From Chthoniobacterales bacterium (GTDB taxonomy: Bacteria > Verrucomicrobiota > Verrucomicrobiia > Chthoniobacterales > JACTMZ01): a stretch of 64,000 bases of DNA. Below, piece after piece: positions 1 through 49,125 of this stretch. The stretch covers positions 140,386 to 204,385 of the forward strand of contig JAGYIO010000003.1 in NCBI GenBank assembly GCA_018402585.1, read 5' to 3'. The notes under the pieces are model-generated. The model was not told where the DNA came from and did not search any database. It saw only the letters and a list, made by a program, of their open reading frames with translations. How positions within the stretch are numbered: the first letter of the stretch is position 1; each line of letters begins with the position of its first letter. The translations under genes were made by a program, and so were the position numbers.

Positions 1-2360
1 TCAACTGCCTGGCCAGCGCCACCTTCCCTCCCGGCTATCAGGATCTCCTCAATTACCTCGGCGGCTCCAATCCCAATCTGAGTGCCGGAGCGGCTCGCAA
101 CACCCTGACCCAACTGGCTGAAAGTGTCCGCCTGGCCAACACCGAACCCCGCACTGAAGTCCTGCGCGCCATCTTTACCCAACCGGGCAACCGCGACACC
201 GCCCCTTTTGGATCCGTGCCGACCATCCCGGGAACGATCTATGCCTCCGACTACGATCAGGGCATGAATGGCCACGCCTACGCGGATGCCGGGTGGGAAA
301 ACGTGCTTTACACCACGGGTGATTACACGGCTTGGAACGAGCGCTGGACCTACCGCAACGGCGGGGTGGACATCGAAACCTGCTCGGACCCTGACTCCAA
401 TGGCTACAACGTCTGTTTTTTCAAACCGAACGAGTGGATGAAATACACCGTCGAGGTCGCTTCCCCCGGGACCTACCGCATCGACCTGCGCGTGGCCAAT
501 GGCTCCGGGCAAACCGCCACCCTCGAGATCCAAAGCGGTGACGGAACCAAAACCTTGGCTACCGCCTCGGTGCGCCCTCGAGGTTGGTCGGACTGGGTGA
601 CGGTTTCCGTCAACGGCGGCTTTTCCACCGCCGGCCGCCAGTCGGTCCGCATCGCCAACACGGGCGCGTCCGACTGCAACATCAACTCCCTGCGCTTCAC
701 CAAGACCAGCGACACCGTGGCAGGGACCACTTCGGTCCCGGTGACCGTGACCACCGTTTCCCTCAAAGCGAACAACGGCGGATACCTCACGTGGAAAAGC
801 TCAAGTCCCCACGTTCTGACCTGCGAGGCCACCTCGGAGACGGACAACACGCGGTTCACCTTGGTCGACGCGGGGGACGGACGCACCGCGTTGCTCGCCG
901 GCAATGGCCAATACGTCCGCTACTCGGCCTCCGACAACAAGCTTTATGCCGATGCGACCAGCCTGGGGGCAGACGAGCAATTCACCCTGAACCGGCTCAA
1001 CCGGTCGGTCGCCATCCAGGCGCCCAACTCTCTCTTTGTCTCGCAAAATGCCAATGACCCTGTCCTCTGCGTCAAAAGTGTCCTCGCGGGCTGGGAATAT
1101 TTTCTCATGACCTCCCCTGTCACGACCCGAGGCGCTCCCGCACTCCCCTTGGGCGTCAGCATGAACAACGGGACGATCAGCTGGAGAACCATGCTCGGAG
1201 CCACCCACTACTCCGTGCAACGCCGCACCTCCTCAAGTGACTCGTTCCAAACCATTGCGACTGATCTTACCGGCACCTCCTTCATCGACCCCTCCCCCGC
1301 GAACGGAGCGACGAACACCTATCGCGTTTTGTCCCATGCCGGGACTTATGACAGTCCTCCTTCCGCCGAGGTCGGTTTCCTCGCCGCCGCCCTCCCCGCA
1401 GATTGGCGCGGGCAGGATGTCGGAAGCGTGGGCATTCCGGGCAGCGCCACCTTTCTCGATGGCACCTTCACCCTAAAAGGATCGGGTGCGGATATTTGGG
1501 AGACGGCCGATGGATGCCATTTTATCTCCCAGAGCTTGAGCGGCGATTTTGTCATCACCGCCCGTCTGGCCAGCATGGCCAACACGGACTACTGGGCCAA
1601 AGCCGGACTGATGGTCCGCGAGTCTCATGCCCCGGGCTCCCGGAATGTCTCCCTGCTCGTCACCCCGCAGGGTGGAGGCACCCGCCTGCAGTGGCGCACT
1701 TCCCCGGGCGGCCGCACCTCCGATCAGCAACTCAGCAGAAGCAACGCGCCTTTGTGGCTGCGCATCGTGCGCAGCGGCAACACCTTCACCGGCTGGCAGT
1801 CGGACGATGGACTGACTTGGACCAATACCCATGCGGTGACCCTCGGCCTGACCTCCGCGGTTTTGCTTGGACTGACCGTGACCTCGCACCAGAACAATGC
1901 GCTCAACCCGGCGGTGTTCGACCAGGTCAACGTGACCAGCCTGCCGCCCGGAACTTCCAGTTGGAGCTCCTTTCAAAACCTATGGTTCGCCGCCGGAGAG
2001 CCCAACAGCGCGCCCGAAGCCGATGCCAACAAGGATGACCTGCCCAATCTTCTGGCCTACAGCGCGGGGTTGAGTCCATGGATCCGGGCCACGCCCGACA
2101 ACGGCGGGTCCCCCTTCTTCGGGATCCACGATGGCTTCCTGGCCATGACCTACACCCGCTTGCGCCACCGTTTCGATTTCGACTGCGTGGTCGAGGTCTC
2201 CGGCGACCTCGTCACTTGGAATTCCGGTCCGGGCTTCACCGCGGAAAGCGGAATCGTGCCGCTCGATGACATCCGGGAACAAGTCACGGTGCGCGATGCC
2301 ATGCCGGCTGGCGGCTCCACTCAGCGCTTCATTCGCCTGCGGGGCATCTACCCGCGATGA
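1..2360 (+). CDS. Secreted carbohydrate-binding multidomain protein, 5'-partial (CBM6/35-like, beta-trefoil/fascin-like, FN3-like and DUF1349/LamG-like domains, plus a C-terminal tail module ending FIRLRGIYPR)
   Basis: The track ORF 216..2360 starts at a GTG. Hand translation of the same frame from nt 3 to 215 has no stop (NCLASATFPPGYQDLLNYLGG...), so the gene enters from upstream and the first full codon is at nt 3. Motifs seen: IYASDYDQG...EWMKYTVEV (CBM6-like) and FTLKGSGADIWETADGCHFISQSLSGDFVITARL...AKAGLMVRES (DUF1349/LamG-like). Confidence 0.8.
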   Translation, partial: NCLASATFPPGYQDLLNYLGGSNPNLSAGAARNTLTQLAESVRLANTEPRTEVLRAIFTQPGNRDTAPFGSVPTIPGTIYASDYDQGMNGHAYADAGWENVLYTTGDYTAWNERWTYRNGGVDIETCSDPDSNGYNVCFFKPNEWMKYTVEVASPGTYRIDLRVANGSGQTATLEIQSGDGTKTLATASVRPRGWSDWVTVSVNGGFSTAGRQSVRIANTGASDCNINSLRFTKTSDTVAGTTSVPVTVTTVSLKANNGGYLTWKSSSPHVLTCEATSETDNTRFTLVDAGDGRTALLAGNGQYVRYSASDNKLYADATSLGADEQFTLNRLNRSVAIQAPNSLFVSQNANDPVLCVKSVLAGWEYFLMTSPVTTRGAPALPLGVSMNNGTISWRTMLGATHYSVQRRTSSSDSFQTIATDLTGTSFIDPSPANGATNTYRVLSHAGTYDSPPSAEVGFLAAALPADWRGQDVGSVGIPGSATFLDGTFTLKGSGADIWETADGCHFISQSLSGDFVITARLASMANTDYWAKAGLMVRESHAPGSRNVSLLVTPQGGGTRLQWRTSPGGRTSDQQLSRSNAPLWLRIVRSGNTFTGWQSDDGLTWTNTHAVTLGLTSAVLLGLTVTSHQNNALNPAVFDQVNVTSLPPGTSSWSSFQNLWFAAGEPNSAPEADANKDDLPNLLAYSAGLSPWIRATPDNGGSPFFGIHDGFLAMTYTRLRHRFDFDCVVEVSGDLVTWNSGPGFTAESGIVPLDDIREQVTVRDAMPAGGSTQRFIRLRGIYPR

Positions 2361-2408
2361 ATGGCTCGCGAACCAAGTCGGGCGGGGCGCCGCGACCGTC
2401 CGTGATCG

Positions 2409-3008
2409 TTACGGGCGGAGAACAGACAAGGCATATTGCAGACAAAGTTTGACCGTGGCTGGCTTGACGCCGAGGGCGCGCTGGGAGGCGGCGAGGCCGA
2501 TCTGGGCGTGCAAATATTGAGCCGCGAAATGAGGCTTGATGCGGCCCATCCATTCTTCCTTCCTCCGGCTGCTCCGAAAAAAACGCGTGAAAATCTCCAC
2601 CGTCGCGGCCTCGATCTCCGCCACTTTGGCCCGGGTCTTCGGGCCGAGGTCGAGCTGCGCGCCACGCATTTTCACGAAGAGGCAGCCGTGCTCGTAACGG
2701 GGATCTTCGCTCATGAAGACGATGAGCGCCTCCAACTTCGCGGCAAAGCTCAGCTTGCTCGAAAGCAGCCCCTTCACCTGGCTCTGGACCAAGCCGGCGT
2801 AGTGGTCGAGCGCGGCCAAAGTTAGTCCGTCCTCGCTGCCGAACTCGCGGTAAAGTGACGGCTTGGCCACCCCGGCCCGCTGGCAGATGGCATTGAGGGA
2901 CACCCCGGGGCCCTCGTGCCAATACGCCTCGGTCGCGACTTGGAGCACGGCCTCCGGACGCATCGTCCGGGGCCGGCCTCGGGGCAGTTTGGTTTGGGTC
3001 GCGGGCAT
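2409..3008 (-). CDS. TetR/AcrR family transcriptional regulator
   Basis: 199-aa ORF with an N-terminal HTH (VSLNAICQRAGVAKPSLYREFGSEDGL) typical of TetR. It is divergent from the SDR gene. Confidence 0.85.
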   Translation of the reverse strand: MPATQTKLPRGRPRTMRPEAVLQVATEAYWHEGPGVSLNAICQRAGVAKPSLYREFGSEDGLTLAALDHYAGLVQSQVKGLLSSKLSFAAKLEALIVFMSEDPRYEHGCLFVKMRGAQLDLGPKTRAKVAEIEAATVEIFTRFFRSSRRKEEWMGRIKPHFAAQYLHAQIGLAASQRALGVKPATVKLCLQYALSVLRP

Positions 3009-3060
3009 TTCTATACTGAGCGGTAGTTTTTGTTTGATGGCGCGGGCTGATGAATGTTAC

Positions 3061-3070
3061 TGACTAGTCA
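3061..3070. promoter_or_regulatory. Perfect 10-bp palindrome TGACTAGTCA in the TetR/SDR divergent intergenic region (candidate TetR operator)
   Basis: The sequence tgactagtca reads the same on both strands. It lies 52 nt upstream of the SDR ATG and 53 nt upstream of the TetR ATG. Confidence 0.4.
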
Positions 3071-3121
3071 CTTAATCGAAACCCTAACCCTAAATCAACC
3101 CAGCACTAACCAATTCACACC

Positions 3122-4000
3122 ATGGAAGACCAACCGAAAACAGTCGTCATCACCGGGGCCAGCAGCGGATTCGGCGAGGGCGCGGTCAAATGTTTCGCGG
3201 ACCAAGGCTATCGTGTCTGGGGCACGATGCGGGACACCGCAGGGCGCAACGCCGCGAAGAAAGCCGCGCTGGAAGCCCATTCTCCCGGTATTTCCATCCT
3301 CGAGATGGATGTGGCCCACGACGACTCCGTGGCCGCAGGTTTTGCCCGGATTCTGGCCGCCGGCCCCGTCGACATCCTGATCAACAACGCGGGCATCATG
3401 TATCTCGGCCTCACCGAAGCGTTCAGCGTGGCCCAGGCCCACGAGCAGATGAACACGAACTACTATGGCGTCATCCGCACCACGCAGGCCGTTCTTCCCG
3501 CCATGCGCAAAGCGGGCCGTGGGTTGATCATCAACTGCAGTTCTCTTGTCGGCCGCATCTCGCCGCCTTTTTTCGGGACCTACACCGCGACCAAGCACGC
3601 TTTGGAGGGCTACTCGCAAGCCTTGCGTTACGAGGTGGCCAAGTTCGGGATCGATGTCGCCATCGTCCAGCCGGGCCCTTTCGGTACCGGGCTTCTCGGA
3701 TCCGGCAAGCCTCCCGCCCACAGCGAGGTGCTTGCCTCCTACGGCGAACTCGCCGGCGTCCCGGCCGCCATGGGTGCCAACTTTGCCCAAATGCTGCAGA
3801 GCGAAGGTGCTCCGGACCCGCAATGGGTGGTCGATGCCTATTTGAAGCTGGCGGAAATGCCCGATGGCGAGCGCCCCGTGCGGACGGTTGTCGGGATCGC
3901 CTGGGGCGTCGACGAAATGAACCGCCTGACTCAGCCCATCCAGGACAAGATTCTCCACGAAATGCAACTGAACGGCGTTTTGGGCGGGGTCTCGACCTGA
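3122..4000 (+). CDS. Short-chain dehydrogenase/reductase (classical SDR) family oxidoreductase
   Basis: It has the TGASSGFG cofactor motif near the N-terminus, NNAG, and the YTATKHALEGY catalytic Y-x3-K. Confidence 0.85.
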   Translation: MEDQPKTVVITGASSGFGEGAVKCFADQGYRVWGTMRDTAGRNAAKKAALEAHSPGISILEMDVAHDDSVAAGFARILAAGPVDILINNAGIMYLGLTEAFSVAQAHEQMNTNYYGVIRTTQAVLPAMRKAGRGLIINCSSLVGRISPPFFGTYTATKHALEGYSQALRYEVAKFGIDVAIVQPGPFGTGLLGSGKPPAHSEVLASYGELAGVPAAMGANFAQMLQSEGAPDPQWVVDAYLKLAEMPDGERPVRTVVGIAWGVDEMNRLTQPIQDKILHEMQLNGVLGGVST

Positions 4001-4032
4001 GGACGGCCGAGGTCAAGCCCCACTACAGACCC

Positions 4033-4259
4033 CTTAGCCGTAACCATGCAAAACATTCTGCCACTTCTGGCACGGCCACAGAGGCGCGTCTGGGCGAGAG
4101 TTGACTAACTATTTGGTGAGCGAGTTGGCACGTGGCCAAGGGGGCACGGGCGTCCCGCCCGTCACGACCCGACAACACGGCCGGGACGGCCGTGCCCCCT
4201 GGACAGACCGAGCCAAGCCGCGCTTTTATTGCGTCTTCAACTGCATGGTTACGGCTTAG
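4033..4259 (+). mobile_element. 227-bp MITE-like non-coding element, copy 1
   Basis: Terminal inverted repeats are CCGTAACCATGCA (4038-4050) and TGCATGGTTACGG (4242-4254). CTTAG flanks the element on both sides. A ~23-bp GC hairpin lies inside. Copies of the same length sit at 26144-26370 and 42185-42411. Confidence 0.6.
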
Positions 4260-4344
4260 TCCCTGAACCCGCGCGTTGGCGGGTGTGTGCTGGGAGTATC
4301 CGGGTTTGCGAAGGCTATGAACTTTGGCAGGCCAGAGGTCAGAA

Positions 4345-4562
4345 GGCCACAGCCGAGTCTGAGAGACGGCCCATAGGCAAATGGAAGAGGATGACAGAAG
4401 ATGGTGTTCGCGCCGCTGACACGGCGCAAACACAGTCTCCGGACCGAAGCTTTGAGCGGGGCGCGTGTCAGCGCGCCCCGCTCTGTCCTCTGCTATCTTC
4501 TTCCATTTGACCGCTTCGCTCAGCTCTCCGAGCTGCCTGTCTCGTTGCCCTCGGCTGTGGCC
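4345..4562 (+). repeat. Long composite hairpin element X, related to 10009-10111
   Basis: The outer stem is GGCCACAGCCGAG (4345-4357) with CTCGGCTGTGGCC (4550-4562). The purine arm 4378-4400 pairs with the pyrimidine arm 4487-4509. The inner hairpins are 4404-4433 (loop CTGACA) and 4454-4483 (12-bp perfect stem, loop TGTCAG). Confidence 0.6.
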
Positions 4563-4666
4563 TGTTCTTCTTCGTTTTCAACAGAGTAACTCCCGCAAGT
4601 TAGTCGGGAGTCCCTGAACCCGCGCATTGGCGGGCGTGGTTGGGGAGTAACTGGGGCGGCAAAGCC

Positions 4667-4802
4667 CAGGGGGAACGGGCGTCTCGCCCGTTTTCCGAAA
4701 GACCACCCGGGCGGGACGCCCGCAACCCAAATCATTGGGGTGTGGCATCGGCATCCTGCCGATGGGTTTGGATCGTGACGGGCGGGACGCCCGTGCCCCC
4801 TG
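4667..4802. repeat. Inverted pair of the GGGG(C/A)ACGGGCGTC(C/T)CGCCCGT motif enclosing a CATCGGCATCCTGCCGATG hairpin
   Basis: 4667-4691 (cagggggaacgggcgtctcgcccgt) and 4778-4802 (acgggcgggacgcccgtgccccctg) are near reverse complements. The hairpin CATCGGC-atcct-GCCGATG lies at 4746-4764. The same two modules recur at 49126-49223. Confidence 0.6.
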
Positions 4803-5005
4803 TCCAAAGCAGTAATTGGCGGGTCCGCCATAACCCAAGTTACTCGGGAGCCAATGGCGCGTCGCTAACCACGGGTCTGGAGATCGGCAAAATGGGGGGT
4901 CTCAGCCTCGAAAGGGACCTGTGAGTTTAAGGTTGGGAAGTTGAAAACCGACGACTGTTCAGATCGGCCACTCCACCCTCACGACTTTCCACCACGATTT
5001 CCAAC

Positions 5006-5446
5006 TTAGCGCGCTGCGAAAGCCGCCGGCGCGTCTTGACCGGCACACGGGTCGTCGGCCAGCCACCGCCGGATTTCTTCGAGGGTTTTGTCCCCGCAAT
5101 TGCGTCCGCCTTTGAGCAACTCGAGCACACCGGCTTCGATTGCTGCGGCGCGTGACCGGATGCCGTGGCGGCCGAGGGCATTGACCGCCCGCGGCGAGAG
5201 ACCGGCCAATTCGACCGAACCGCGCAAGGTTTTCAAGACGCGGCGGTGGCGCGAGAGCATGAGCGAGATGGCCTGAGGCGTGACCTGGAATTGCTCGGAA
5301 ATCTCGCGGAAGGTGTAGCCAAGGCCGCGCAGGGTGGCGATATCGCGGACTCGTTGCGGCAGTTTCTCAAGGGTTGCCGCGGCCGGCGGATCGGTCGGGG
5401 TGCTGACCGAACAGTTGTATAGGGTCACGATGTCACTCATAGCCAA
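5006..5446 (-). CDS. Small DNA-binding protein with a sigma-70 region-4-like HTH and an RNA polymerase alpha-CTD-like helix-hairpin-helix
   Basis: LPQRVRDIATLRGLGYTFREISEQFQVTPQAISLMLSRHRRVL resembles sigma region 4. LAGLSPRAVNALGRHGIRSRAAAIEAGVLELLKGGRNCGDKTLEEIRRWL follows the alpha-CTD pattern (L-S-x-R-x-x-N-x-L...N-x-G-x-K-[ST]-L-x-E-I). The start overlaps the GH3 stop by 14 nt. Confidence 0.6.
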   Translation of the reverse strand: MAMSDIVTLYNCSVSTPTDPPAAATLEKLPQRVRDIATLRGLGYTFREISEQFQVTPQAISLMLSRHRRVLKTLRGSVELAGLSPRAVNALGRHGIRSRAAAIEAGVLELLKGGRNCGDKTLEEIRRWLADDPCAGQDAPAAFAAR

Positions 5447-7557: not shown

Positions 7558-9849
7558 ATGAAGCTCAAAACCAAAACCCCCAAGTTACGTCGCGCCCGCC
7601 TCGGAACTTCCCTCGTCACCGCGGCCCTCGCAGCGATCAGCCTTTCGGCCGCCAGTGCCCAAGACAATTCCTGGACCGGCGGCACGAGCACGGATTGGAA
7701 CACCCCGGGAAATTGGAGTCTCGGAAATGTACCAAGCGGGCAGAACGCCATTGTGGACAACGCGTCGGGAAACATCGCAACCATCTCCGCGGATATTGCC
7801 GCCACGCCCAATGATATCGTCGTGCGCGGGGGAGGCCGCCTCGATCATCTTGCCGGAACCGCCGGCACAGGCGGAGGCAGTTGGATGTTTGTCGGCCAGA
7901 ACGGCACGGCGGGCACCTACAATTTGGCGGACACCGCCACGGCCGCTGCCGGCCTGACCGGTTTTGCCCAGGGAACCGGTTCACTCAACGCCACGGGGAA
8001 TCTAAACGTAGGTGCTGCTGGTGACAATCGGACCGGAACCGTGCGGGTCAACACGGCGGGAACGCTTGCCGTCTCCGGCGAATTCTTCATCGGTGACTCG
8101 CTCAACAGCACGGGCACTTTCAGCCTCGAAAACGGCAGCATGACGGTGAACAACAAGATCTATGTCGGCAACAACCGGGGCACCGGGACGCTGACCATGT
8201 CCGGCGGCACGCTGACCAAGACCGGCGGCGACCAAACTTTTGTCGGCCGCGACAGCGGCACCGGGACCCTCACCCAGAGTGGCGGGACCATCACGCTGAA
8301 CCATGATTTCTACGTGGGACAAGGCGGCGGTGGCAACGGCACTCTCAATCTTAGCGGCAACTCGGTGCTCAACACCGGGCGTGATTTTGTCATCGGCCGC
8401 GAGAGTGGCACGGGCACGCTCAACATGACCGGCGGCACGATCACCAAGACCGGGGATGAGAAGATGATCGTCGGCCACAACAATGGCACAGGCACCGTGG
8501 TGCAGAGCGGCGGAACGATCAACGTGAATCAAAACCAGTTGTATATCGGCAACGAAAATGCCGGGGCTCAGGGAACCTATACCCTCAGCGGGACCGGAGC
8601 GCTCAACGTGGCGGACGAATTGGTCGTCGGCCGCGAGAGCGGCACAGGTATCTTGAACGTCAACGGCGGCACGATCACCACCTCGGGCAACGGCAACATG
8701 TATATCGGGCGCCGTAACGGCACAGGCACCCTCAACCAGACGGACGGGGTAATCAGCGTGATTTACGAATTCGGCGTGGGTACGCGCGATGACAACAAGA
8801 TTGGCACCGGCACCTACAATCTGAGTGGAGGCACCTTGTCGGCGGGTCGTAACATCTTCATCGGCAAAGAACTCGGATCGTCCGGAACGATGGTCATGAC
8901 CGGCGGGGCGATGAGCACGAGCGACAAGTTGCAGATCGGGCACAACCAAGCGACGGGCGTTCTCACCCAGAGCGGCGGCACGGTGAACGTGCAAAACGAA
9001 GTCTTCATCGGCAATGAAAACAATGCCTCATCGGTGGGAACCTACACCCTGAGCGGGACCGGCGTCCTCAACGTGGGCAACGAGGTCATTGTCGGCCGCG
9101 ACAACGGCACGGGAACCTTCAACCTCGACGGAGGCACGGTCAACGCCACCAAGATTTCCGGCGGCAACGGCAGCGCGACGGTGAACTTCAACGGCGGCGT
9201 GCTCAAAGCCAAACGGGACGAGGCCAACCTGATCGAAAACCTGGACACCGCCAACGTCGAAAACGGCGGGATCAAGATCGACAGCAACGGGTTTGCTGTT
9301 GCCACCAGCCAGGCTCTGACCGGCACGGGCGGCTTGGAGAAGCTGGGCGCGGGCAGCCTGACCCTCAACGCAGCCAGCACTTACACCGGGCCGACGCTGG
9401 TCAGTGCCGGCACCTTGACCTTGGCCCTCAACAGCAGCATCACCAGCGCGGTCACTGTGGCCGACGGCGCCGCCCTCGGCGGAGCGGGCGCCATTGCCGG
9501 CGACCTCTCCTTCAACTCCGGCGCCAAGTTTGCCTTTAGTCTCACCCAGACACTTCTCGCCAACGGCGCCACGGTGAGCTTTGCCGACTTCGGCATTGAC
9601 GATCTTGTCGGATTGTCCAGTGCGACCACGGTCGGTCTTTACAACCTCATCGGCGGCACCGCTATCATCAACACGAACGGACTGAGTAATCTGGGTGCCG
9701 CCAACGCCGCCGATCTCGGCGATGGAAAGTCCGCCTACTTCACCGAAGGTAGTTTGCAAGTCAACGTCGTTCCGGAACCCAGCACCTACGCTTTACTCGT
9801 CCTCGCCGGTCTGGGGCTGGCCGGCCACGTCATCCGCCGGCGGCGCTAA
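7558..9849 (+). CDS. Autotransporter-associated beta-strand-repeat surface protein with a C-terminal PEP-CTERM anchor
   Basis: It has a signal peptide and the NSWTGGTSTDWNTPGNWS motif. It carries about 20 repeats of the G-T-G-T-L-x-x-S-G-G-T-I type and GGLEKLGAGSLTLNAASTYTGPTLVSAGTLTL. The C-terminus is VPEPSTYALLVLAGLGLAGHVIRRRR. Confidence 0.9.
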   Translation: MKLKTKTPKLRRARLGTSLVTAALAAISLSAASAQDNSWTGGTSTDWNTPGNWSLGNVPSGQNAIVDNASGNIATISADIAATPNDIVVRGGGRLDHLAGTAGTGGGSWMFVGQNGTAGTYNLADTATAAAGLTGFAQGTGSLNATGNLNVGAAGDNRTGTVRVNTAGTLAVSGEFFIGDSLNSTGTFSLENGSMTVNNKIYVGNNRGTGTLTMSGGTLTKTGGDQTFVGRDSGTGTLTQSGGTITLNHDFYVGQGGGGNGTLNLSGNSVLNTGRDFVIGRESGTGTLNMTGGTITKTGDEKMIVGHNNGTGTVVQSGGTINVNQNQLYIGNENAGAQGTYTLSGTGALNVADELVVGRESGTGILNVNGGTITTSGNGNMYIGRRNGTGTLNQTDGVISVIYEFGVGTRDDNKIGTGTYNLSGGTLSAGRNIFIGKELGSSGTMVMTGGAMSTSDKLQIGHNQATGVLTQSGGTVNVQNEVFIGNENNASSVGTYTLSGTGVLNVGNEVIVGRDNGTGTFNLDGGTVNATKISGGNGSATVNFNGGVLKAKRDEANLIENLDTANVENGGIKIDSNGFAVATSQALTGTGGLEKLGAGSLTLNAASTYTGPTLVSAGTLTLALNSSITSAVTVADGAALGGAGAIAGDLSFNSGAKFAFSLTQTLLANGATVSFADFGIDDLVGLSSATTVGLYNLIGGTAIINTNGLSNLGAANAADLGDGKSAYFTEGSLQVNVVPEPSTYALLVLAGLGLAGHVIRRRR

Positions 9850-9870
9850 AGGAACATAGGCTCTCAAGCA

Positions 9871-9903
9871 GAACGCCCGCCAACCGGCGGGCGTTCTTTT
9901 TTT
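9871..9903 (+). terminator. Rho-independent terminator after the PEP-CTERM protein gene
   Basis: GAACGCCCGCC-aacc-GGCGGGCGTTC is followed by TTTTTTT, 22 nt after the stop codon. Confidence 0.8.
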
Positions 9904-10008: not shown

Positions 10009-10111
10009 TAGCCACGGATAGAGGAAGATGGAGGAGGATGATTTTGCGCCGGTGTCAGCCGGCACAACTTTCTTCGGCTCATCTTCCCTTATCCTCCCCA
10101 ATCAGTGGCTA
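10009..10111 (+). repeat. Long hairpin element Y, a smaller relative of 4345-4562
   Basis: The outer stem is TAGCCAC (10009-10015) with GTGGCTA (10105-10111). A purine arm (gaggaagatggaggaggatga) faces a pyrimidine arm (tcatcttcccttatcctcccc). The apical hairpin is GCCGG-TGTCAG-CCGGC at 10048-10063. Confidence 0.55.
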
Positions 10112-10131
10112 AATATTTTTTGAAACCGCAC

Positions 10132-10152
10132 TAGTCATTCCGGACTATAGCG
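10132..10152. promoter_or_regulatory. Conserved 21-nt box TAGTCATTCCGGACTATAGCG, copy 2
   Basis: 19 of 21 nt match 7440-7460. The box lies 81 nt upstream of the GH30 ATG. A possible -35 TTGAAA lies at 10120-10125, 17 nt before GACTAT. Confidence 0.45.
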
Positions 10153-10232: not shown

Positions 10233-11684
10233 ATGTCTCTCCCCACGAGTCCCCGCCGCCTCCTCACCACCCTCCTGCTCGGTGGCTTGTCTCTGACCAT
10301 ACATTCCGCCGATGCCGCCGAGCCGCCCGTTCGTGCCTGGTCGGTGGTCGAAACCGCCAAGGATACCGGACACCGGCTCAGCGCCGTGACGGCTCCGTCC
10401 AAAACCGCAGCCCCTGCCCCCAGCGCCATTGTCTGCCATCCGTCGAAGTCATTTCAGGAAATCGTCGGCTTCGGCGGTGCCCTCAGCGAGTCCTCCGCTT
10501 GGGTTTTGGCCCAGCTTCCACCGGACAAGCGGATGGAAATACTTCGCCGCTACTACGACCCCAAGGAGGGCATCGGCTACACTCTGGCCCGCACGCACCT
10601 CAACTCCTGCGACTTTTCCCTCAGCATGTGGTCGCTTACCCCCACCCCGGGCGACTACGACCTGCATGATTTCACCCTCGAGCCGATGCGCCGCTGGATG
10701 ATGCCGCTCATCCACGATGCCCGCAAGGTGGCCGGGCCCGACCGCTTCAAATTGATGGCCTCACCCTGGAGCCCGCCGGCCTGGATGAAGAACAACAACC
10801 GCATGGACGATGGTGGTTCGCTCCGCTGGGAATACCGTCCGGCCTGGGCGGGTGTTTTTGTCAAATTCGTTCAGGCCATGGCCAAGGAGGAGGGCATTCC
10901 GATCTGGGCCCTTTCCGTGCAAAACGAACCCGGCGCCCATCAGCGGTGGGAATCCTGCACCTACACGCCGGAGCACGAGGCGGAGTTCATCCGCGACTTC
11001 CTCGGGCCCGCCTTGCACGCCGCGGGGCTGGAGGATGTGAAGCTGCTCGGCCATGACCACAACCGGGACTCGATCGAGAAATTCGCCGAGGCCGAACTCG
11101 GAGACCCCGCCACCGCCAAGTATCTTTGGGGCCTCGGGCTGCACTGGTATATGAGCGAGGACTACGCCGCCTCGTCGCGGGTGCACGAGAAATTCCCGGA
11201 CAAACACATTCTCTTCACCGAAGGGTGCGTCGAAGGCGCTCCCGAGTGCATCGGCAAATGGGAGAACGGCGAACGCTACGCGCGCAATATCATCGGCGAC
11301 TTCAGCAACTGGGTCTGCGGCTTCATTGACTGGAATATCGTCCTCGACCAACGCGGCGGTCCGAACCACGTCGGCAATTTCTGTGACGCCCCGGTCATCG
11401 TCGACACCAACACCAAGGAAGTCACCTACGGCCCCTCCTTCTACTACCTCGCCCACTTCAGCAAATTCGTCCAACCCGGCGCCCGCCGCATCCACTCGGA
11501 AGGCGGCCCGCAAGGAATCCAGTCCATTGCGTTCCGCAACCCGGACGGAACCCTCGCCGTCGTCGTCTTCAACCCGACCGAACAGCCCGCCGAGTTCGCC
11601 CTCGGGGTGGCCGAAGAAGCGAACCTGACCTGCCAGATTCCGGCCCGCGGCATCCAGACCTATTTCGAGTCCCCGCAGTCCTAA
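10233..11684 (+). CDS. Glycoside hydrolase family 30 (glucosylceramidase / beta-1,6-glucanase-like), secreted
   Basis: GH30 motifs are present: IVGFGGALSESSA, ASPWSPPAWMKNNN, LSVQNEPG and LFTEGC. A signal peptide is present. Confidence 0.88.
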   Translation: MSLPTSPRRLLTTLLLGGLSLTIHSADAAEPPVRAWSVVETAKDTGHRLSAVTAPSKTAAPAPSAIVCHPSKSFQEIVGFGGALSESSAWVLAQLPPDKRMEILRRYYDPKEGIGYTLARTHLNSCDFSLSMWSLTPTPGDYDLHDFTLEPMRRWMMPLIHDARKVAGPDRFKLMASPWSPPAWMKNNNRMDDGGSLRWEYRPAWAGVFVKFVQAMAKEEGIPIWALSVQNEPGAHQRWESCTYTPEHEAEFIRDFLGPALHAAGLEDVKLLGHDHNRDSIEKFAEAELGDPATAKYLWGLGLHWYMSEDYAASSRVHEKFPDKHILFTEGCVEGAPECIGKWENGERYARNIIGDFSNWVCGFIDWNIVLDQRGGPNHVGNFCDAPVIVDTNTKEVTYGPSFYYLAHFSKFVQPGARRIHSEGGPQGIQSIAFRNPDGTLAVVVFNPTEQPAEFALGVAEEANLTCQIPARGIQTYFESPQS

Positions 11685-11726: not shown

Positions 11727-14700
11727 ATGAAATCCACCCCCACCCCCCCTATCACCGGAAACTTCCTTCGGGCTACACCCGTTGTCGCCGCCCTTCTCCT
11801 CGGCTTGAGCGCCCCGCTCGGTCACGCCGTCGACAACTTTTGGAGCGGAGCCGTGAGCTCGGATTGGAATGACGGGGCCAACTGGTCGGAAGGCGGGGTG
11901 CCCGATACTCTATTTGACGACAACGCCGTTGTGGCCACAACCACCCCCAACATCGCAACGATCACCGCGGATATTTCCGCGACCCCCAATGACATCATCG
12001 TGAATGGGGGCGGTCGCATCGACCATCTGGCCGGCGTGGCCGGAACCTTCGGGGGTGCCTGGATGAAGGTGGAAGACGGCGTCTACAACCTGGCCGACAC
12101 GTCGATCCCAGAAGTTGGTATCACCGGCTACGCACAAGGCACGGGTTCGCTCGACGCCACGGGAAATCTCCTTGTGGCCGCCTTCGGCGACAATCGGGAG
12201 GGCACGATCAACGTCAACACCGACGGGACCCTCACCGTTTCCAGCGAGCTGTTTGTCGGCGACTCCACGGGCAGTCAAGGCGCCCTCAACCTCGAAGCGG
12301 GCACCATGACGTTGAACAACACGAGCTACATCGGCAACAACCGGGGCACCGGCACGGTAACCATGACCGGCGGCACGATAATCAAAACGGGTGGGGGGCA
12401 GCTTCTCGTCGGGCAAAACAATGGTATTGGCCGCGTGTTGCACAGCGGCGGCACCATAAGCGCGAACAACGAAGCGTACATCGGCAATGCCAATGCCGGT
12501 TCGGGAAGCTACACGCTGAACGGGACCGGATCGCTTAGCATTTCCAACGAGCTCGTCGTGGGGCGCGAACTCGGCACGGGCGTTCTGAACGTCGACGGCG
12601 GTACGATTACGACCGAGGGCAATGGCAACATGTATGTCGGCCGCCGCAACGGCGTGGGAACACTCAACCAAACGGCCGGCACGCTCAACGTGAACCGCGA
12701 GTTCGGCGTGGGAACACGCGACGGCGACCAGGGCGGCATCGGTGCCTACAATCTGAGCGGAGGCGCGCTGGCGGCGACCAACAACATCTTTGTCGGCAAG
12801 GACGAATCCTCCTCGGTCAACGCCACCTCCTTGGTTCGTGGCGTGGCCTACGTCATCACGACGCCGGGCGATACAATTTGGACCGCATTCGGCGCAGCCG
12901 ATAACAACGTGGGAACGGTCTTCACCGCCTCGGCCAGCGGAACCGCGGACAGCGGCACCGGTGTCGCGGTCAAGGTCACCGATGTGTCCGGCAAGTCGTC
13001 CGGCACCATGACGATGACCGGCGGAACCGTGACGGGCAGCGACAAGCTGATCATCGGGGAGAATGGCGCGACAGGCTTCCTTGCGCAAAGCGCCGGCACC
13101 ATGAATGTGCAGAACGAAATCTATGTTGGCAACGGTCTTCCGCCCGCCCAAGGAACAAGGATTCTTTCCAATGCTAATGACGGACAACTCGAGAAGCGTT
13201 CCGAGTGGTCACCTGAAACCGTCATCATTCAAAATATCGACAACTGGAATGTGAGCATCGGCGAATGGTATGGATCCGGCCTGACGACCGCCGTCATCCC
13301 TTTCCAGTTGCCCGACTTCGGCGCGGTGGCTGATCCGTTCACCAGCGCCACCTTCGGGGTGAATCTTTACAACAAAGGAGATGCCACGGTCACCGACCTC
13401 GACCTCTACGCAGTGAGGGTCAGCCCTGCCCCCCAGATTGCCACAACCGACTGGTACAACGGTTCCGCCCCCGACCCGAACGCCACGCTGATCCAAGCGA
13501 GCTTCCTCACCCCCGCCAGCACGACGACGAGCGCAGGTCCCGAGAGTGGGCCCAACAACCTGACGGATGACGCGGGAAGCGCGGCACTCCTCGCCTACCT
13601 CAATGCCGCCTACGACAGCGGGAACGGGGCCGGACAGTTCGTTTTTCTCCGGGTGAGCTACGCCTCGGACACCTTCCCCTCAGGTTGGGATGCTTACAAT
13701 TTTACAACCCGCAACGCCGCTCTCGAGGGCGATGCTCCGGTGATCAGCTTTACTTCTTCCGTCGCAGCGATCCCGCCCGACGCCACCTACACGGTCAGCG
13801 GTTCGGCGGTGGTCAACGTGGGCAACGAAATCATCGTGGGCCGCGAAAACGGCACCGGCACCCTCAATCTTGACGGCGGCACGGTCAACGCGACCAAGAT
13901 CTCGGGTGGCACCGGCAACGCCACGCTGAACTTCAACGGTGGCGTCCTCACCGCGAAACGGGACGAGAGCAACCTGATCGAAAACTTGGATGTGGCCAAT
14001 CTGGCGGGTGGCGGACTCAAAATCGACAGCAACGGGTTCAACGTGACCACCAGCCAGTTCTTCACGGGTACAGGCGGCTTGGAGAAATCGGGTGCAGGCC
14101 AGCTCACCTTGCGCGCACCCAGCACCTACGCAGGCACTACAACGGTGACGGCCGGCGTTCTCCGGGTCGAAAAAACCGGACTTAATGCCATTGTCGACGC
14201 CACCGCCGACACTTTGGTCGCCGAGTTCGCGGCCCCGACGGCTCCCGGGGCTTACCGCATCTTGCCCGGGCCTCTGGCCGGGTCCCAGACCTTCACCGCC
14301 ACCGGTTTGGGCTCGCTCCAGCAGGCGACTTTCGACGCACAGACCAGCACCGTGACGGTCACGGGAGAGCCGGACGGCGACCCTTACGTGGCCTGGATCG
14401 AGAGCTTCACTCCGAATCCCCTGCTCCCGGATGACGCCTCCAAATTACCCACCGCCGACCCGGATGGCGACGGCATCGCCAATCTGATGGAATACGTGCT
14501 GGCCGGCGGCAACCCGGTCGTGCCGTCTCTCTCCATTCTCCCGACCGTGGCCAGCGTGGGTGACGATCTGGTGCTGAGCTACACCCGCAATGACGAATCG
14601 GAAGCGGACACCACCCAAGTGGGCCAGTGGACCACAGACCTGACCGTCTGGAATGACGTCGTGCCTGTGGTGGTCAACGAAAACGGGGCTTTGGCGGATG

Positions 14701-14777
14701 ATATGACAGTCACCGTGCCCAAGAGCAATGCGGTCAACGGAAAACTGTTTCTCCGCTTGAAGGTGACCATGCCGTAA
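11727..14777 (+). CDS. Autotransporter-associated beta-strand-repeat surface protein, paralog of 7558..9849, with insert domains and a non-PEP-CTERM C-terminal module
   Basis: The N-terminal ~430 aa and the [30 protein letters not shown] region are collinear with the 7558 protein. Extra segments lie at ~12796-13000 and ~13159-13785. The C-terminus is [21 protein letters not shown]...[12 protein letters not shown]. Confidence 0.9.
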
Positions 14778-23676: not shown

Positions 23677-26148
23677 ATGTCCGCCCCCAAGCTCACTCCC
23701 ATGATGCGCCAATACCAGGACATCCGCCGCGAGCTTCCCCCCAACACCCTCCTCTTCTTCCGCCTCGGGGACTTTTACGAAATGTTTTTCGACGACGCCC
23801 GCGAAGCGTCTGCCCTCCTCAATGTCGCCCTGACCAAACGCGGCGACACCCCCATGTGCGGCGTCCCCTACCACAGCGCCCGCGCCTACGTGGCCAAACT
23901 GGTCGAAGCCGGCAAACGCGTCGCGATCTGCGACCAAGTCGGCGAAGTCACTCCCGGCCAACTCGTCCGTCGCCAAATCGCCCGCATCCTCAGTGCCGGC
24001 ACGCTCGACGACTTCGGCCTCGAGGAAAACCGCCACAACTACCTCGCCGCGGTCTGCCCGGAGAAAAAATCCTCCGGCCTCGCCTGGCTCGATCTCAGCA
24101 CCGGCGAATTCCGCCTCGCCGAAATCGAATCGCCCGCCCAACTCGCCGACCAACTCGCCCGCCTCCAACCAAGCGAACTCCTCATCCCCGACCACCTCGA
24201 GACCACCCCCGACCTCCCGCTGCCCCCCACCCCGCACGACGCCTTCGCCTTCGACCTGACCCAGGCCACCGACCTCCTCTGCGACCACTTCCGCGTGCAA
24301 TCCCTCGACGGCCTGGGCTGCACCGATCTCCCGCACGGCACCCGTGCCGCCGGCGCCCTCCTCCATTACATCACCCGCAGCCTCCGCCGCGACGCACAAC
24401 ACCTCGCGCCCCCGAAACCCTGGCACGCCACATCCTACCTCCTCCTCGACGCCGTCACCCAAACCAACCTCGAACTCGTCGAATCCCGCAGCCCCGAAGG
24501 CACCAGCCTTCGCGGCGCCATCGACCGCACCCTCACTCCGATGGGCGCCCGCCTGCTCCGCGAATGGATCCTCCACCCGCTCCGCGATCTCGCCGCCATC
24601 ACCCACCGCCAAGACCTCGTCGCCGCTTTCCATGATGACCCCACCCGCCTCGCCGCGATACGCGACATCCTCCGCGACATCCGCGACATGGAACGCGCCG
24701 TCTCCCGCCTCAGCCTCGCCTCCGGCAACGCCCGCGATCTCGTCGCGCTGAAAACCTCCCTTGCCCTCCTCCCGTCCCTCCGCGCCACCCTCGCCGAAAA
24801 CGACACCTCCCCGCTCCTCGCCCTCGCCGCCGACCTCCGCACCTTCGACCCGCTCGTCGTCCTCCTCGAATCCGCCGTGGTCGACGAACCCCCGCCGACC
24901 CTCCGCGACGGCGGCATGATCCGCGAGGGCTACAACCCCGACCTCGACGAACTCCGCCGCGCCGGCACCGAAGGACGCCGCTGGATCGCCGAACTGCAAG
25001 ACCGCGAAATCGCCCGCACCGGCATCAAGTCGCTCAAAATCCGCTACAACTCCGTCTTCGGCTACTACCTCGAAGTGACCAAATCCAATCTCGCCTCCGT
25101 CCCCCACGACTACACCCGCAAACAAACCACCGCCAACTCGGAGCGCTTCATCACCCAGGAGCTGAAAGAAATGGAAGGCCGCATCCTCGGCGGCGAAGAA
25201 CGCGCCCGCGCCCTCGAGTCGGAAATCTTCGGCCAACTCCGCACCGCCGTCCTCGCCGAATTGGCCTCGCTCCAACACACCGCCCGCGCCGTGGCCCAGA
25301 TCGACACCCTTGCCGGACTCGCCGAAACCGCCCGCACCTTCCGCTACATCCGCCCGAAACTCACCGCCACCGGCGCGATCAAAATCACCGACGGACGCCA
25401 CCCCGTCCTCGACCAAACCATGCCCGCCGGGCGCTTCGTGCCCAACGACACCGCGCTCGACACCGACGCCCCCCGCCTCGTCATCCTCACCGGCCCCAAC
25501 ATGGCCGGCAAAAGCACCTACATCCGCCAGGTCGCCCTCCTCGTCCTCCTCGCCCAGACCGGCAGTTTCATTCCCGCGGCCGAAGCCGAGATCGGACTGG
25601 TCGACCGCATCTTCACCCGCGTCGGCGCGAGCGACGACCTGGCGCGCGGACAATCCACCTTCATGGTCGAGATGAACGAAACCGCCGCCATCCTCAACAA
25701 CGCCACCGACCGCAGCCTCGTCATCCTCGACGAAATCGGCCGCGGCACCTCCACCTTCGACGGCCTCTCCATCGCCTGGAGCGTGGCCGAGCACCTCCAC
25801 GACGTCACCGCCTGCCGCACCCTTTTCGCCACGCATTACCACGAACTCACCGACCTGGCCCGCACCCGCCGCGGCGTGACCAACTGCAACATCGCGGTCC
25901 GCGAATGGAACGACGACATCATCTTCCTCCGCAAAATCATCCCCGGCCCCGCCGACCAAAGCTACGGCATCCAAGTTGCCCGCCTCGCCGGCCTGCCCGA
26001 ACCGATCCTCAAACGCGCCCGCGAAATCCTGACCAACCTGGAAAACTCCGAACTCACCGCCGAAGGCAAACCGGCGCTAGCCGAAAAACGCCCCCGCGCC
26101 CACAAACTCCGCGCCTTCACCGACCAACTCGACCTCTTCGAGTCCTAG
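23677..26148 (+). CDS. mutS: DNA mismatch repair protein MutS
   Basis: Motifs present: TPMMRQYQDIRRELPPNTLLFFRLGDFYEMFFDDA, GPNMAGKSTY Walker A, and DEIGRGTSTFDG. The stop TAG (26146-26148) lies inside the terminal CCTAG of the MITE-like element. Confidence 0.97.
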   Translation: MSAPKLTPMMRQYQDIRRELPPNTLLFFRLGDFYEMFFDDAREASALLNVALTKRGDTPMCGVPYHSARAYVAKLVEAGKRVAICDQVGEVTPGQLVRRQIARILSAGTLDDFGLEENRHNYLAAVCPEKKSSGLAWLDLSTGEFRLAEIESPAQLADQLARLQPSELLIPDHLETTPDLPLPPTPHDAFAFDLTQATDLLCDHFRVQSLDGLGCTDLPHGTRAAGALLHYITRSLRRDAQHLAPPKPWHATSYLLLDAVTQTNLELVESRSPEGTSLRGAIDRTLTPMGARLLREWILHPLRDLAAITHRQDLVAAFHDDPTRLAAIRDILRDIRDMERAVSRLSLASGNARDLVALKTSLALLPSLRATLAENDTSPLLALAADLRTFDPLVVLLESAVVDEPPPTLRDGGMIREGYNPDLDELRRAGTEGRRWIAELQDREIARTGIKSLKIRYNSVFGYYLEVTKSNLASVPHDYTRKQTTANSERFITQELKEMEGRILGGEERARALESEIFGQLRTAVLAELASLQHTARAVAQIDTLAGLAETARTFRYIRPKLTATGAIKITDGRHPVLDQTMPAGRFVPNDTALDTDAPRLVILTGPNMAGKSTYIRQVALLVLLAQTGSFIPAAEAEIGLVDRIFTRVGASDDLARGQSTFMVEMNETAAILNNATDRSLVILDEIGRGTSTFDGLSIAWSVAEHLHDVTACRTLFATHYHELTDLARTRRGVTNCNIAVREWNDDIIFLRKIIPGPADQSYGIQVARLAGLPEPILKRAREILTNLENSELTAEGKPALAEKRPRAHKLRAFTDQLDLFES

Positions 26149-26370
26149 CCGTAACAATGCAAAACAATCTGCCTTTTCCGGCGCTGCCACAGAGGCGCGC
26201 CTGGGCGAGAGTTGACTAACTGTTTGGCGAGCGAGTTGGTACGTAGCCAAGGGGCACGGGCGTCCCGCCCGTCACGATCAGACAGCACGGCCGGGGACGG
26301 CCGTGCCCCCTGGAAAAACCGAGCCAAGCCGCGCTTTTATTGCGTCTCCGACTGCATGGATACGGCTTAG
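26144..26370 (+). mobile_element. 227-bp MITE-like element, copy 2 (the most diverged copy)
   Basis: The TIRs are CCGTAACAATGCA (26149-26161) and TGCATGGATACGG (26353-26365). The flanks are CCTAG and CTTAG. The core GGGGCACGGGCGTCCCGCCCGTCACG...CCGTGCCCCC is conserved. Confidence 0.6.
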
Positions 26371-26384
26371 CGTCTTAAACATCT

Positions 26385-26448
26385 GTAGCGGCGCCGTCCC
26401 CGGCGCCGGCCGTTAACCTAAGCTTGTAGCGGCGGTCTACGACCGCCG
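26385..26448. repeat. Two tandem TGTAGCGGCG-type hairpins (REP-like)
   Basis: The first is tgtag-CGGCGCCG-tccc-CGGCGCCG at 26385-26408. The second is tgtag-CGGCGGTC-tac-GACCGCCG at 26426-26448. Related GTAGCG/GTAGGG-led hairpins lie at 21941, 29734 and 54608. Confidence 0.6.
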
Positions 26449-26452
26449 GAAC

Positions 26453-26836
26453 CTATCCCTCCAACCCAGAGCAAAACTCCCGAAAAGCCCTCTCCTCTTC
26501 CGCCGTCGCTACCCCCGCCACAATGTGCCCCGCGAGACTCCTCACAACCAGTTTCCGCGCCGCCGGCAAGTCCAACTGATTGATCACGTCACGGATGATC
26601 GCCGCAAAAGTGTTTCCATTGTAAAAACAGAAAGCAGCGCCGCGATGACAACGCCTGCACAATTCGACAGCTTCATTGAGCGTTGTCTCTTGAAGGTAAT
26701 GACTCTCCCAGAGCTGCCGCGTGACTTCGTGCCCGTCCGATGTCGGCTTATGCAGAGCACTCTTTGCCGAGCATAGCATCGCATTTTGCGCGGTCACAAA
26801 CTCCCAAGAGTAGTCGCGCAGCCACACCCGCTTCAT
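26453..26836 (-). CDS. Hypothetical protein (127 aa), second gene of a low-GC orphan pair
   Basis: It is the only long ORF here, and no family was recognised. Its start lies 3 nt after the stop of the 62-aa ORF. A hand count gives ~48% G+C for 26581-26700, against visibly GC-richer flanks. Confidence 0.55.
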   Translation of the reverse strand: MKRVWLRDYSWEFVTAQNAMLCSAKSALHKPTSDGHEVTRQLWESHYLQETTLNEAVELCRRCHRGAAFCFYNGNTFAAIIRDVINQLDLPAARKLVVRSLAGHIVAGVATAEEERAFREFCSGLEG

Positions 26837-26839
26837 GGC

Positions 26840-27028
26840 TCAGCTTTTGTACGGTTGCTTCTTCTTGATTTCCTGCAACTCCGCAACGCCGCGGCTCTTC
26901 AAATAGCCTTTGCCCGTCTTGGCGTAAACGGGCTCCGCGCTGAATTGATCCTGAATCGCCAAACCCTCGCGCAGGACCCGCTGAAATACCGGATTCTCCA
27001 ACATCTCCGGATTGATCACCGGCTTCAT
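26840..27028 (-). CDS. Hypothetical small protein (62 aa), first gene of the orphan pair
   Basis: MKPVINPEMLENPVFQRVLREGLAIQDQFSAEPVYAKTGKGYLKSRGVAELQEIKKKQPYKS. It is tightly coupled to the downstream ORF, and no family was recognised. Confidence 0.45.
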   Translation of the reverse strand: MKPVINPEMLENPVFQRVLREGLAIQDQFSAEPVYAKTGKGYLKSRGVAELQEIKKKQPYKS

Positions 27029-29730: not shown

Positions 29731-29751
29731 CCCGTAGCGTCGCCTTCCCCA

Positions 29752-30926: not shown

Positions 30927-31131
30927 AACAGTTTGCTAACTCCCCGTATAACCCCTTATCAAGGCCCGAATACGCCCCTGCGGCGGGAGTGCCTTTCCCC
31001 TTCCCTGCCTCTCCGCGCAGCAGACCTGCCCTCGGGCACCACCCCCGTAATCTCCGGGCCCCCCGGCGGCTCGCCTCGAACGCCCCGACAAAGCATCGAG
31101 CCGCGACACCTCCGCGCAAGACACCCTCCTC

Positions 31132-49109: not shown

Positions 49110-49125
49110 CGCAGGCATTCGGGCC

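Follow-up and report, generated by a model that had tools for sequence, protein, structure and literature searches.

Two long palindromes of a Chthoniobacterales contig as probable copies of a non-coding interspersed repeat

A prokaryotic miniature inverted-repeat transposable element (MITE) is defined as small (50-800 bp) and without coding capacity (PMC11602168), and small bacterial repeats are known to cluster, inserting next to or into each other (PMC10969869). Here we describe two long hairpins, tentatively referred to as X and Y, in 64,000 nt of a Chthoniobacterales bacterium of the Verrucomicrobiota (assembly GCA_018402585.1, contig JAGYIO010000003.1, positions 140,386-204,385, forward strand); this whole stretch is called the window below, and positions are counted from its first letter. 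X and Y are probably copies of a palindromic interspersed repeat without coding function, a selfish element of Chthoniobacterales resembling MITEs, REPINs or ERICs. Neither Rfam nor the literature on Verrucomicrobia and Chthoniobacter repeats yielded a description of this family, which is apparently new, although the kind of element is well known.

Several described systems share part of its organization. REPINs, which are hairpin-forming doublets of repetitive extragenic palindromic (REP) sequences mobilised by REP-associated tyrosine transposases (RAYTs), and bacterial interspersed mosaic elements also consist of two short, inverted, self-complementary hairpins across a spacer, inside a longer hairpin-forming unit. 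They are likewise intergenic and non-coding, cluster or nest with other repeats, and show decay of copies; they make no target-site duplication, and none was seen at the X/Y copies read. The units of the X/Y family are larger (100-255 nt, vs about 70-110 nt) and have long conserved terminal inverted repeats. The ERIC/IRU elements (127-bp enterobacterial imperfect palindromes) and the RU-type repeats are, like X and Y, long imperfect palindromes in intergenic, often transcribed DNA, which form size variants through internal deletions or insertions at defined sites, are kept across related genera, and have no known transposase and no clear target-site duplication (PMC10969869, PMC2229807). ERIC/IRU elements belong to another phylum and have no sequence similarity to the X/Y family, which additionally has a pair of sub-hairpins in its interior and nesting within an outer palindrome. 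Correia repeat-enclosed elements, the MITEs of Neisseria, resemble it in their 100-160 bp units with terminal inverted repeats of ~26 bp (PMC10969869), and in having long and short forms by internal deletion and transcribed copies that fold, their hairpins being cleaved by RNase III (PMC10969869); their TA target duplication and IHF site, however, are not seen in the X/Y family. Finally, SPRITE, a pneumococcal repeat resembling a rho-independent terminator, combines a hairpin followed by a T tract with bunching of repeats and mutual insertion (PMC10969869). SPRITE is much shorter and simpler, and X and Y are at most putative terminators.

Two related palindromes and their family

X and Y are very stable imperfect palindromes, not chance hairpins. 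X, bounded by a 14/14-bp inverted repeat (AGGCCACAGCCGAG / CTCGGCTGTGGCCT, 4344-4357 / 4550-4563), folds as RNA at -128.3 kcal/mol (z = -9.2 vs dinucleotide shuffles), and Y (10009-10111) at -47.4 kcal/mol (z = -5.1). An initial sequence-only reading had pointed to both as related long hairpins; that much holds, both lie at the coordinates it gave, and the features on which it was based are present, namely closing stems of the form RGCCAC...GTGGCY and arms rich in purines on one side and in pyrimidines on the other.

The simplest full member of the family, referred to as the base type, is a palindrome of 142 nt found at L008:6337-6478 and in L052, L053, and L054 (L-numbers denote metagenome contigs or contigs of metagenome-assembled genomes (MAGs), fetched as loci of ~520 kb in all). 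Its ends are perfect (GGCCACGGATGGAAGA...TCTTCCATCCGTGGCC), and it runs from the end through a purine-rich 5' arm with the doubled motif GGAAGAGGATG / CAGAAGATGG, a hairpin h1 (loop CTGACA), a spacer, and a hairpin h2 (loop TGTCAG) to the complementary arm. X is such a 142-nt unit nested in a second, outer palindrome, with AGCCGAGTCTGAGAGACGGCCCATAGGCAA as its 5' arm and TTGACCGCTTCGC...CTCGGCT as its 3' arm. The 3' module of the outer palindrome is the most conserved block of X; it includes a 41-nt stretch invariant in three genomes and is 86-100% identical in at least 15 contigs, where it adjoins different upstream hairpins. Relatives of X with 86-99% identity are present in L001, L002, L011, L013, and L021. 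A three-genome alignment (A1: the window and two MAGs) is 85-95% conserved over ~355 nt around X, with unrelated flanks beyond, and the frames of this ~355-nt unit also border base-type copies.

Within X, complementarity between the arms 4378-4423 and 4464-4509 is 72% and continues across both loops. The loops of h1 and h2, CTGACA and TGTCAG, are reverse complements because the two hairpins are mirror partners in a globally dyad-symmetric element; the extra X hairpin with a reverse-complement loop, singled out in the sequence-only reading, is thus present and is accounted for by the symmetry of the whole. TGTCAG occurs six times in the window, two of these being the loops of the X and Y hairpins, and CTGACA four times, once as the loop of h1.

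The derivation of Y can be read from a 213-nt, two-hairpin element, Y-long, in the orthologous spacer of L040-L045 (GH30 93% identical). Y-long consists of h1 (TTTTGCGCCGG-CACA-CCGGCGCAAAA), a spacer of ~75 nt, and h2 (GTTGCGCCGG-TGTCAG-CCGGCACAAC), the two hairpins being near reverse complements of one another. When a hidden Markov model (HMM) of Y-long was run on the window with nhmmer, its positions 1-44 were joined directly to 145-213, which identifies Y as the product of a 100-nt deletion between two TTGCGCCGG repeats. The single Y hairpin, as the fusion product of this deletion, matches h1 of X by sequence, so that the apical stems previously compared between X and Y, and taken as compensatory, are not homologous. 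The Y tail, AAATATTTTTTGAAACC, is kept in L015, L023, and L040; L023 has a partial copy of Y-long, and L015 has a full copy in an unrelated context (E = 1e-59), with one end fused to an X-type 3' module.

Upstream of GH30, Y-long is present in the 93% relatives, and the element is absent from L048 (90% identity), L049-51 (82%), and L046 (81%), where the box CTAGTCATTCCGGACTATAG downstream is still kept. Because it is missing from these orthologous spacers, Y is a lineage-specific insertion and not a control region of GH30.

A direct BLAST comparison of X with Y is not significant (E = 0.7), which is the one result that would suit a chance likeness of two unrelated GC-rich hairpins sharing a loop. 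Models and intermediate forms nevertheless link the two. R1, a covariance model for which the four base-type copies from other metagenomes were the sole input, served for the scan that the sequence-only reading had proposed, and it matched exactly two loci in the 64-kb window, X (E = 4e-27 on the + strand, 2e-13 on the - strand) and Y (6e-5 and 2e-7). R1 also matches Y-long end to end (E ~1e-8 to 1e-9), and the Y-long HMM matches X-type 5' arms (E = 2.6e-5). Among the intermediate forms that link X and Y is the L015 copy, which joins Y-long to an X-type 3' module; further, the terminal sequence AGCCACGGATAGA is identical in Y and at L008:6980. By these matches we take X and Y to be homologous and consider chance resemblance excluded, with practically no room left for it.

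The family is not confined to these two copies. It was found in ~15 independent metagenome or MAG contigs of Chthoniobacterales, every copy being intergenic. A scan of 185,579 species genomes with the X termini returned two elements, one in a 'Chthoniobacter flavus' MAG and one in a Chthoniobacterales MAG, and when metagenomes were scanned with a 20-mer of the longest invariant block, 35 loci matched, ~18 of them true copies (~13 distinct sequences); about half of the 35 were chance matches inside genes and were discarded. Three further copies were reached via spurious peptides called from open reading frames (ORFs) over the element. A plasmid BLAST with the 352-nt unit gave no match, and the two matches of a viral-contig scan with the terminal-repeat pattern were both chance matches inside coding DNA. 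Neighboring genes are housekeeping genes unrelated from site to site (among them ZnuA/HisF, GH16, MeaB, epimerase, RecG/GH75, DJ-1/DUF4230, AbiEii/endonuclease I, PGA_cap, DUF72/esterase), and no transposase, integrase, or reverse transcriptase adjoins the copies in the loci examined. Copies may be clustered, with four or five copies or fragments inside 5 kb of L021 and two inside 1 kb of L008.

The copies are 101-255 nt long. Common to the subfamilies are a terminal inverted repeat of ~30 nt (RGCCAC-NGAT-GGAAGARGATG-NCAGARGATGG) and an interior of two self-complementary sub-hairpins mirrored across a spacer; otherwise the forms are diverse. Hybrids combine a base-type 5' end with an X-type 3' end (L008:6980-7168, L012, and L020), copies in L013, L020, and L021 carry an extra inserted hairpin, and half copies (L021:3285-3367, L021:6342-6418, L014, L024, L025, and L030) have the conserved 3' module after quite different hairpins. 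The TGTCAG loop, which does occur in the hairpins of both X and Y, is not a fixed feature as had been claimed, since loops elsewhere in the family are CGTCAG, CACA/TGTG, TGCA, GTCA, or TGTGACC. One stem may even carry its loop in either orientation (X h1 vs Y vs L025), a pattern expected of DNA-level events at palindromes. Other variants also arise through DNA-level events, namely deletion between stem repeats (Y), nesting (X), arm swaps, and the formation of half copies.

Strand symmetry, covariation, and possible roles as RNA

An excess of G opposite T on the + strand had been taken as a weak sign of a structure transcribed from that strand. Neither the asymmetry nor the transcribed structure is borne out, as both strands fold and score alike. 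Folding energy is lower on the - strand (-135.9 vs -128.2 for X, -51.3 vs -46.1 for Y), the G-U pair counts of the two strands are 5 vs 6 for X and 3 vs 4 for Y, and across the family neither strand is consistently better, with R1 matching every copy on both. The purine-rich 5' arm and pyrimidine-rich 3' arm are uninformative on strand because a palindrome necessarily presents this arrangement on either of its strands.

Ten X-type or hybrid copies showed no covariation within the X subfamily. RNAalifold assigned a covariation term of -0.77 kcal/mol, five cells of the apical stem were broken and none compensated, and double changes were confined to the places where base-type and X-type arms had been swapped; of 500 shuffles, 110-209 attained the observed values. 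Otherwise, stem substitutions in this subfamily each disrupt a pair. The L053 copy has one more uncompensated change, in h1, and h2-stem substitutions in other copies are all uncompensated. Between subfamilies, a comparison of Y-long with the base type over 52 modelled pairs, in an alignment that was fitted to the model and so leans towards pairing, gave 32 pairs unchanged, 4 with one-sided changes, 14 with two-sided changes still paired, and 2 broken. In such modelled pairs the hairpin architecture is clearly kept with different stem sequences. The earlier claim that pairing is conserved while sequence is not thus stands between subfamilies and fails within the X subfamily. Kept pairing of this kind is equally expected for a DNA element that needs hairpins to propagate, and it carries no strand information. 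Decay of individual copies, with the lineages remaining palindromic, is what a mobile repeat would be expected to show when selection acts on its propagating master copies.

X and Y might alternatively be genes for a family of free-standing structured small RNAs, whose hexaloops would kiss (CUGACA/UGUCAG) or bind a protein. The very stable folds would suit such RNAs, as would the complementary loops within X, the hairpins kept with different stems between subfamilies, and the high sequence conservation of the 3' module. However, the loop complementarity follows from dyad symmetry, neither strand is favored by energy, by G-U content, or by the score of the covariance model, and covariation is missing within the subfamily. 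One hairpin was lost by deletion in Y, loops vary across the family, and the copies are multiple, mosaic, truncated, clustered, and absent from orthologous sites. Further, no sigma-70-like promoter was predicted near X or Y, and Rfam gave no match at gathering thresholds in the whole window; its E-value mode returned just generic hairpin (miRNA-type) matches far below threshold, and none for X or Y even at E = 10. Nothing found marks X or Y as a dedicated RNA gene, and we regard this alternative as quite improbable. Stems that look compensatory around a loop that looks fixed resemble a structured RNA, and a tempting false lead is removed by recognizing a repeat family here.

Somewhat less improbable, but still unlikely as the primary explanation, is that the repeats have been domesticated as cis-acting RNA, serving as terminators, 3'-end protectors, or RNase III sites, a function that would explain why copies are retained and that is compatible with a mobile repeat as a secondary role. 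A T6 tract begins 7 nt past the GTGGC closing stem of Y and is kept just past this stem in Y-type copies (the window, L015, L023, and L040); past X-type copies, the right frame is conserved and T-rich, with interruptions in the tail of X itself. X-type copies are co-oriented with genes in all four informative same-strand pairs (L001, L008, L020, and L021), many copies lie between convergent gene ends (X in the window, L015, L025, and L052), and SPRITE, REP, and Correia repeats provide precedents in other bacteria (PMC10969869, PMC2229807). Against this, the PEP-CTERM/PATR gene upstream already has a canonical terminator of its own, with Y ~100 nt downstream of it, and a terminator consensus scan called this terminator (9870-9897) and not the closing stems of X or Y. 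Copies are also found between divergent genes (L012, L030, and L054), both strands fold equally well, and stem mutations are uncompensated within the subfamily; the orientation sample is tiny, and the orientation of Y relative to X is ambiguous.

Fit to mobile repeats and a possible mode of propagation

The size and coding state of the family agree with the MITE definition, its copies of 101-255 nt differing by frame-breaking indels. When the peptide of the longest frame open across X was searched against 5.8 billion proteins, six short, weak matches resulted. We also considered a small ORF shared by X and Y (ATG-GAR-GAG-GAT-GAY, 'MEEDD') and rejected it, as the ATG is ATA in L001, L002, L013, and others, and the frames diverge. 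Retrons, transposon bridge or guide RNAs, CRISPR repeats, and integron attC sites were likewise rejected, since the neighboring genes change at every site and include none for a reverse transcriptase, recombinase, Cas protein, or integrase.

MITEs are also expected to have terminal inverted repeats of at least 10-15 bp, and here these are 14/14 bp in X, perfect at the GGCCACGGATGGAAGA ends of the base type, and ~30 nt in the consensus. Dispersed copies in ~15 contexts, and the presence or absence of Y-long at its site, supply the insertion polymorphism. Of the REP/REPIN features, the inverted palindrome doublet is found in the self-complementary, mirrored h1 and h2, and in X, Y, and Y-long neither the two hairpins nor the closing stem is bordered by a GTAG/CGTC tag (PMC3733652). 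The family cannot be filed as REP/REPIN because this tag is missing and the terminal repeats are long.

Several observations weigh against a non-autonomous mobile repeat. No direct repeat of 2-10 bp abuts the RGCCAC...GTGGCY ends in any copy read, where a target-site duplication would stand; as X-type copies always lie inside the same conserved frames, the true ends of the moving unit are uncertain in this search, and what moves may be the ~355-nt unit or a still larger segment. Neither the ~520 kb of fetched loci nor the window yielded an autonomous partner with matching ends, and those loci hold no terminal-repeat pair at insertion-sequence spacing. The internal hairpins kept between subfamilies are not needed by a classical terminal-repeat transposase. 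Identities of 85-99% among metagenome copies, together with the invariant 41-nt block, could also reflect purifying selection on a function, and the 4/4 co-orientation hints weakly at strand-dependent selection, in a sample too small to carry weight. Finally, the copies are known at the level of contigs (the window, and MAG and metagenome contigs).

A non-autonomous palindromic repeat nevertheless remains our preferred explanation. Its copies would be made as DNA, through an enzyme provided in trans, for which the candidates are a transposase that binds the terminal repeats or an HUH/RAYT-type enzyme that recognises hairpins on single-stranded DNA. Formation of hairpins or cruciforms would be needed for copying, such that propagating master copies stay palindromic while dispersed copies decay. 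A cognate insertion sequence, if there is one, would be bounded by GGCCACNGATGGAAGA... Any effect as RNA would be secondary: transcripts reading through a copy would gain a long hairpin with a T-rich tract behind it, which might terminate transcription, be cut by RNase III, or stabilise the RNA.

Within this explanation, we tentatively allow, as a minority possibility, that the family is a Verrucomicrobial analogue of REPINs, that is, a hairpin doublet copied via single-stranded DNA by an HUH/RAYT-like or other enzyme that reads the sub-hairpins and their GTCA-containing loops. Such copying would explain together the hairpins that the subfamilies keep with different stems, the lack of an observed target-site duplication, the loop flips, and the tendency to co-orientation with genes, and in a variant of it, transcribed copies may serve as structured modules of 3' ends. 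The window yielded no RAYT gene, and its small ORFs beside repeat clusters have no Y1_Tnp match. If the REPIN-like reading is true, the family offers a handle on the mobilising enzyme, in a phylum without a characterised system of this type.

Beyond the avoided call of a non-coding RNA, the family is of value for its hairpin-conserving, loop-flipping, and nested behavior. It is a widespread, recombinogenic palindromic repeat of uncultured freshwater and soil Chthoniobacterales, and palindromic repeats of this kind break assemblies, seed spurious predictions of ORFs and non-coding RNAs, and drive local rearrangements. The X spacer by itself has three different repeats that vary between strains of 98.5% identity.

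Genomic setting and other repeats of the window

The coordinates of the elements and of their neighbors are collected in the table. X sits in a spacer of ~800 nt filled with repeats, and Y lies between two genes on the + strand. The terminator upstream of Y is conserved in L040 and L048 and belongs to the context, outside the Y element. There is no transposase among the window genes near the repeats.

Table. Features of X, Y, and their surroundings (window positions unless a locus is named)
Feature	Position	Strand	Remarks
X, composite imperfect palindrome	4344-4563	.	outer palindrome plus inner base-type palindrome
X, inner base-type palindrome	4373-4514	.	arms with GGAAGAGGATGACAGAAGATGG; two sub-hairpins; end-to-end match of R1
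X hairpin h1, GTGTTCGCGCCG-CTGACA-CGGCGCAAACAC	4404-4433, loop 4416-4421	.	counterpart by sequence of the Y hairpin, loop inverted
X hairpin h2, GAGCGGGGCGCG-TGTCAG-CGCGCCCCGCTC	4454-4483, loop 4466-4471	.	mirror partner of h1
X, 3' module of outer palindrome, TTGACCGCTTCGCTCAGCTCTCCGAGCTG...CTCGGCTGTGGCC	4507-4562	.	small hairpin 4521-4535; 5' partner 4345-4377
Repeat unit carrying X, ~355 nt	4259-4610	.	left frame 4259-4344, X, right frame 4563-4610
Y with conserved tail AAATATTTTTTGAAACC	10009-10127	.	deletion derivative of the 213-nt Y-long
Y hairpin, TTTTGCGCCGG-TGTCAG-CCGGCACAAC	within Y		fusion product of the 100-nt deletion
TTGCGCCGG repeat	10044-10052	.	site of the 100-nt internal deletion giving Y; two nhmmer segments overlap here
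Y-long, example	L040:9672-9884
Short-chain dehydrogenase gene	3122-4000	+	one side of X
Small gene with sigma-70 region-4-like helix-turn-helix	5006-5446	-	other side of X
PEP-CTERM/PATR protein gene	7558-9849	+	upstream of Y
Canonical intrinsic terminator of PEP-CTERM/PATR gene	9870-9903	+	12-bp GC-rich stem (9870-9897), then T7
GH30 glycosidase gene	10233-11684	+	downstream of Y
D1 copies	4033-4259, 26144-26370, 42185-42411		79-96% identical

The GH30 gene is flanked by two paralogous genes for PATR (autotransporter-repeat) surface proteins (7558-9849 and 11727-14777), the first with a PEP-CTERM motif. Over long stretches, the paralogues are 63-78% identical in nucleotide sequence (repeat families D2-D5, D10, and D11), and in a relative, L043, the first PATR gene is disrupted or shortened. 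The palindromic box CTAGTCATTCCGGACTATAG lies at 10131-10150, ~85 nt upstream of the GH30 start, and is kept in all relatives down to 81% protein identity (L040:9896-9915, L046:9884-9905, L048:101-121, and L049:9907-9925); in L048 it is repeated at 561-581, upstream of a second gene. The box is probably an operator or promoter element of a regulator of the glycan-degradation cluster.

The region around X differs among relatives. When 216-5446 of the window was compared with L040/L041 (1245-5109), gene content was found to differ between a CBM/fascin-domain glycosidase gene and the small sigma-like gene. L040 and L041, whose GH30 is 93% identical, are without the TetR-like gene (2409-3008), the dehydrogenase gene, and the whole X repeat cluster, this stretch being a variable region. 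The product of mutS (23677-26148) is 86-90% identical to proteins labelled as from Chthoniobacterales or Terrimicrobiaceae MAGs, which places the host among the Chthoniobacterales.

Two other repeats border the X unit. D1, 227 nt long and MITE-like, has terminal inverted repeats of 18 nt (CTTAGCCGTAACCATGCA) and encloses a GC-rich hairpin doublet. The contig L011, from a strain 98.5% identical to the window, carries X and lacks both the adjacent D1 copy (4033-4259) and a 241-nt cassette on the other side (cassette B, 4611-4851). The D1 copy at 4033 is a recent insertion, because CTTAG is duplicated at its flanks and the copy is absent from L011. The cassette is bounded by repeated CAAGTTAsTCGGGAG; like the X unit it opens with a TCCCTGAACCCGCGC...GGGGAGTAACTGGGG frame, and it ends with CAAGTTACTCGGGAG, repeating the last 15 nt of the X unit. 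The same tandem arrangement is present at L015:2380-2590 (66% identity). The frames of the X unit and the cassette may form a repeat family of their own with variable cargo.

GC-rich hairpin doublets resembling REPINs occur in two types at 4139-4200, 4663-4800, 26244-26303, 42291-42352, and 49122-49224, recurring inside D1, inside the 241-nt cassette, and alone. One type is GGGGGCACGGGCGTCCCGCCCGT ... ACGGCCGGGACGGCCGTGCCCCC, and the other GTGGCATCGGCTTCCAGCCGATG ... CATCGGCTGGAAGCCGATGCCAC, the latter having 23-nt arms with 100% complementarity. GTAG-tagged REP-like hairpins (GTAGCGGCGCCG-TCCC-CGGCGCCGGC and GTAGCGGCGGTC-TAC-GACCGCCGG) are located at 26383-26445, just past the D1 copy downstream of mutS; the two ORFs beside them (26453-26836 and 26840-27028, - strand) have no Pfam match and are not RAYT-like. 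Opitutus terrae is described as rich in GTAG repeats (PMC3733652).

Finally, a segment of ~300 nt (29591-29923) is duplicated 1.4 kb away at 31061-31302 with 76-86% identity (D12, D17, and D19), and within it a 26-nt inverted repeat lies at 29777-29844.

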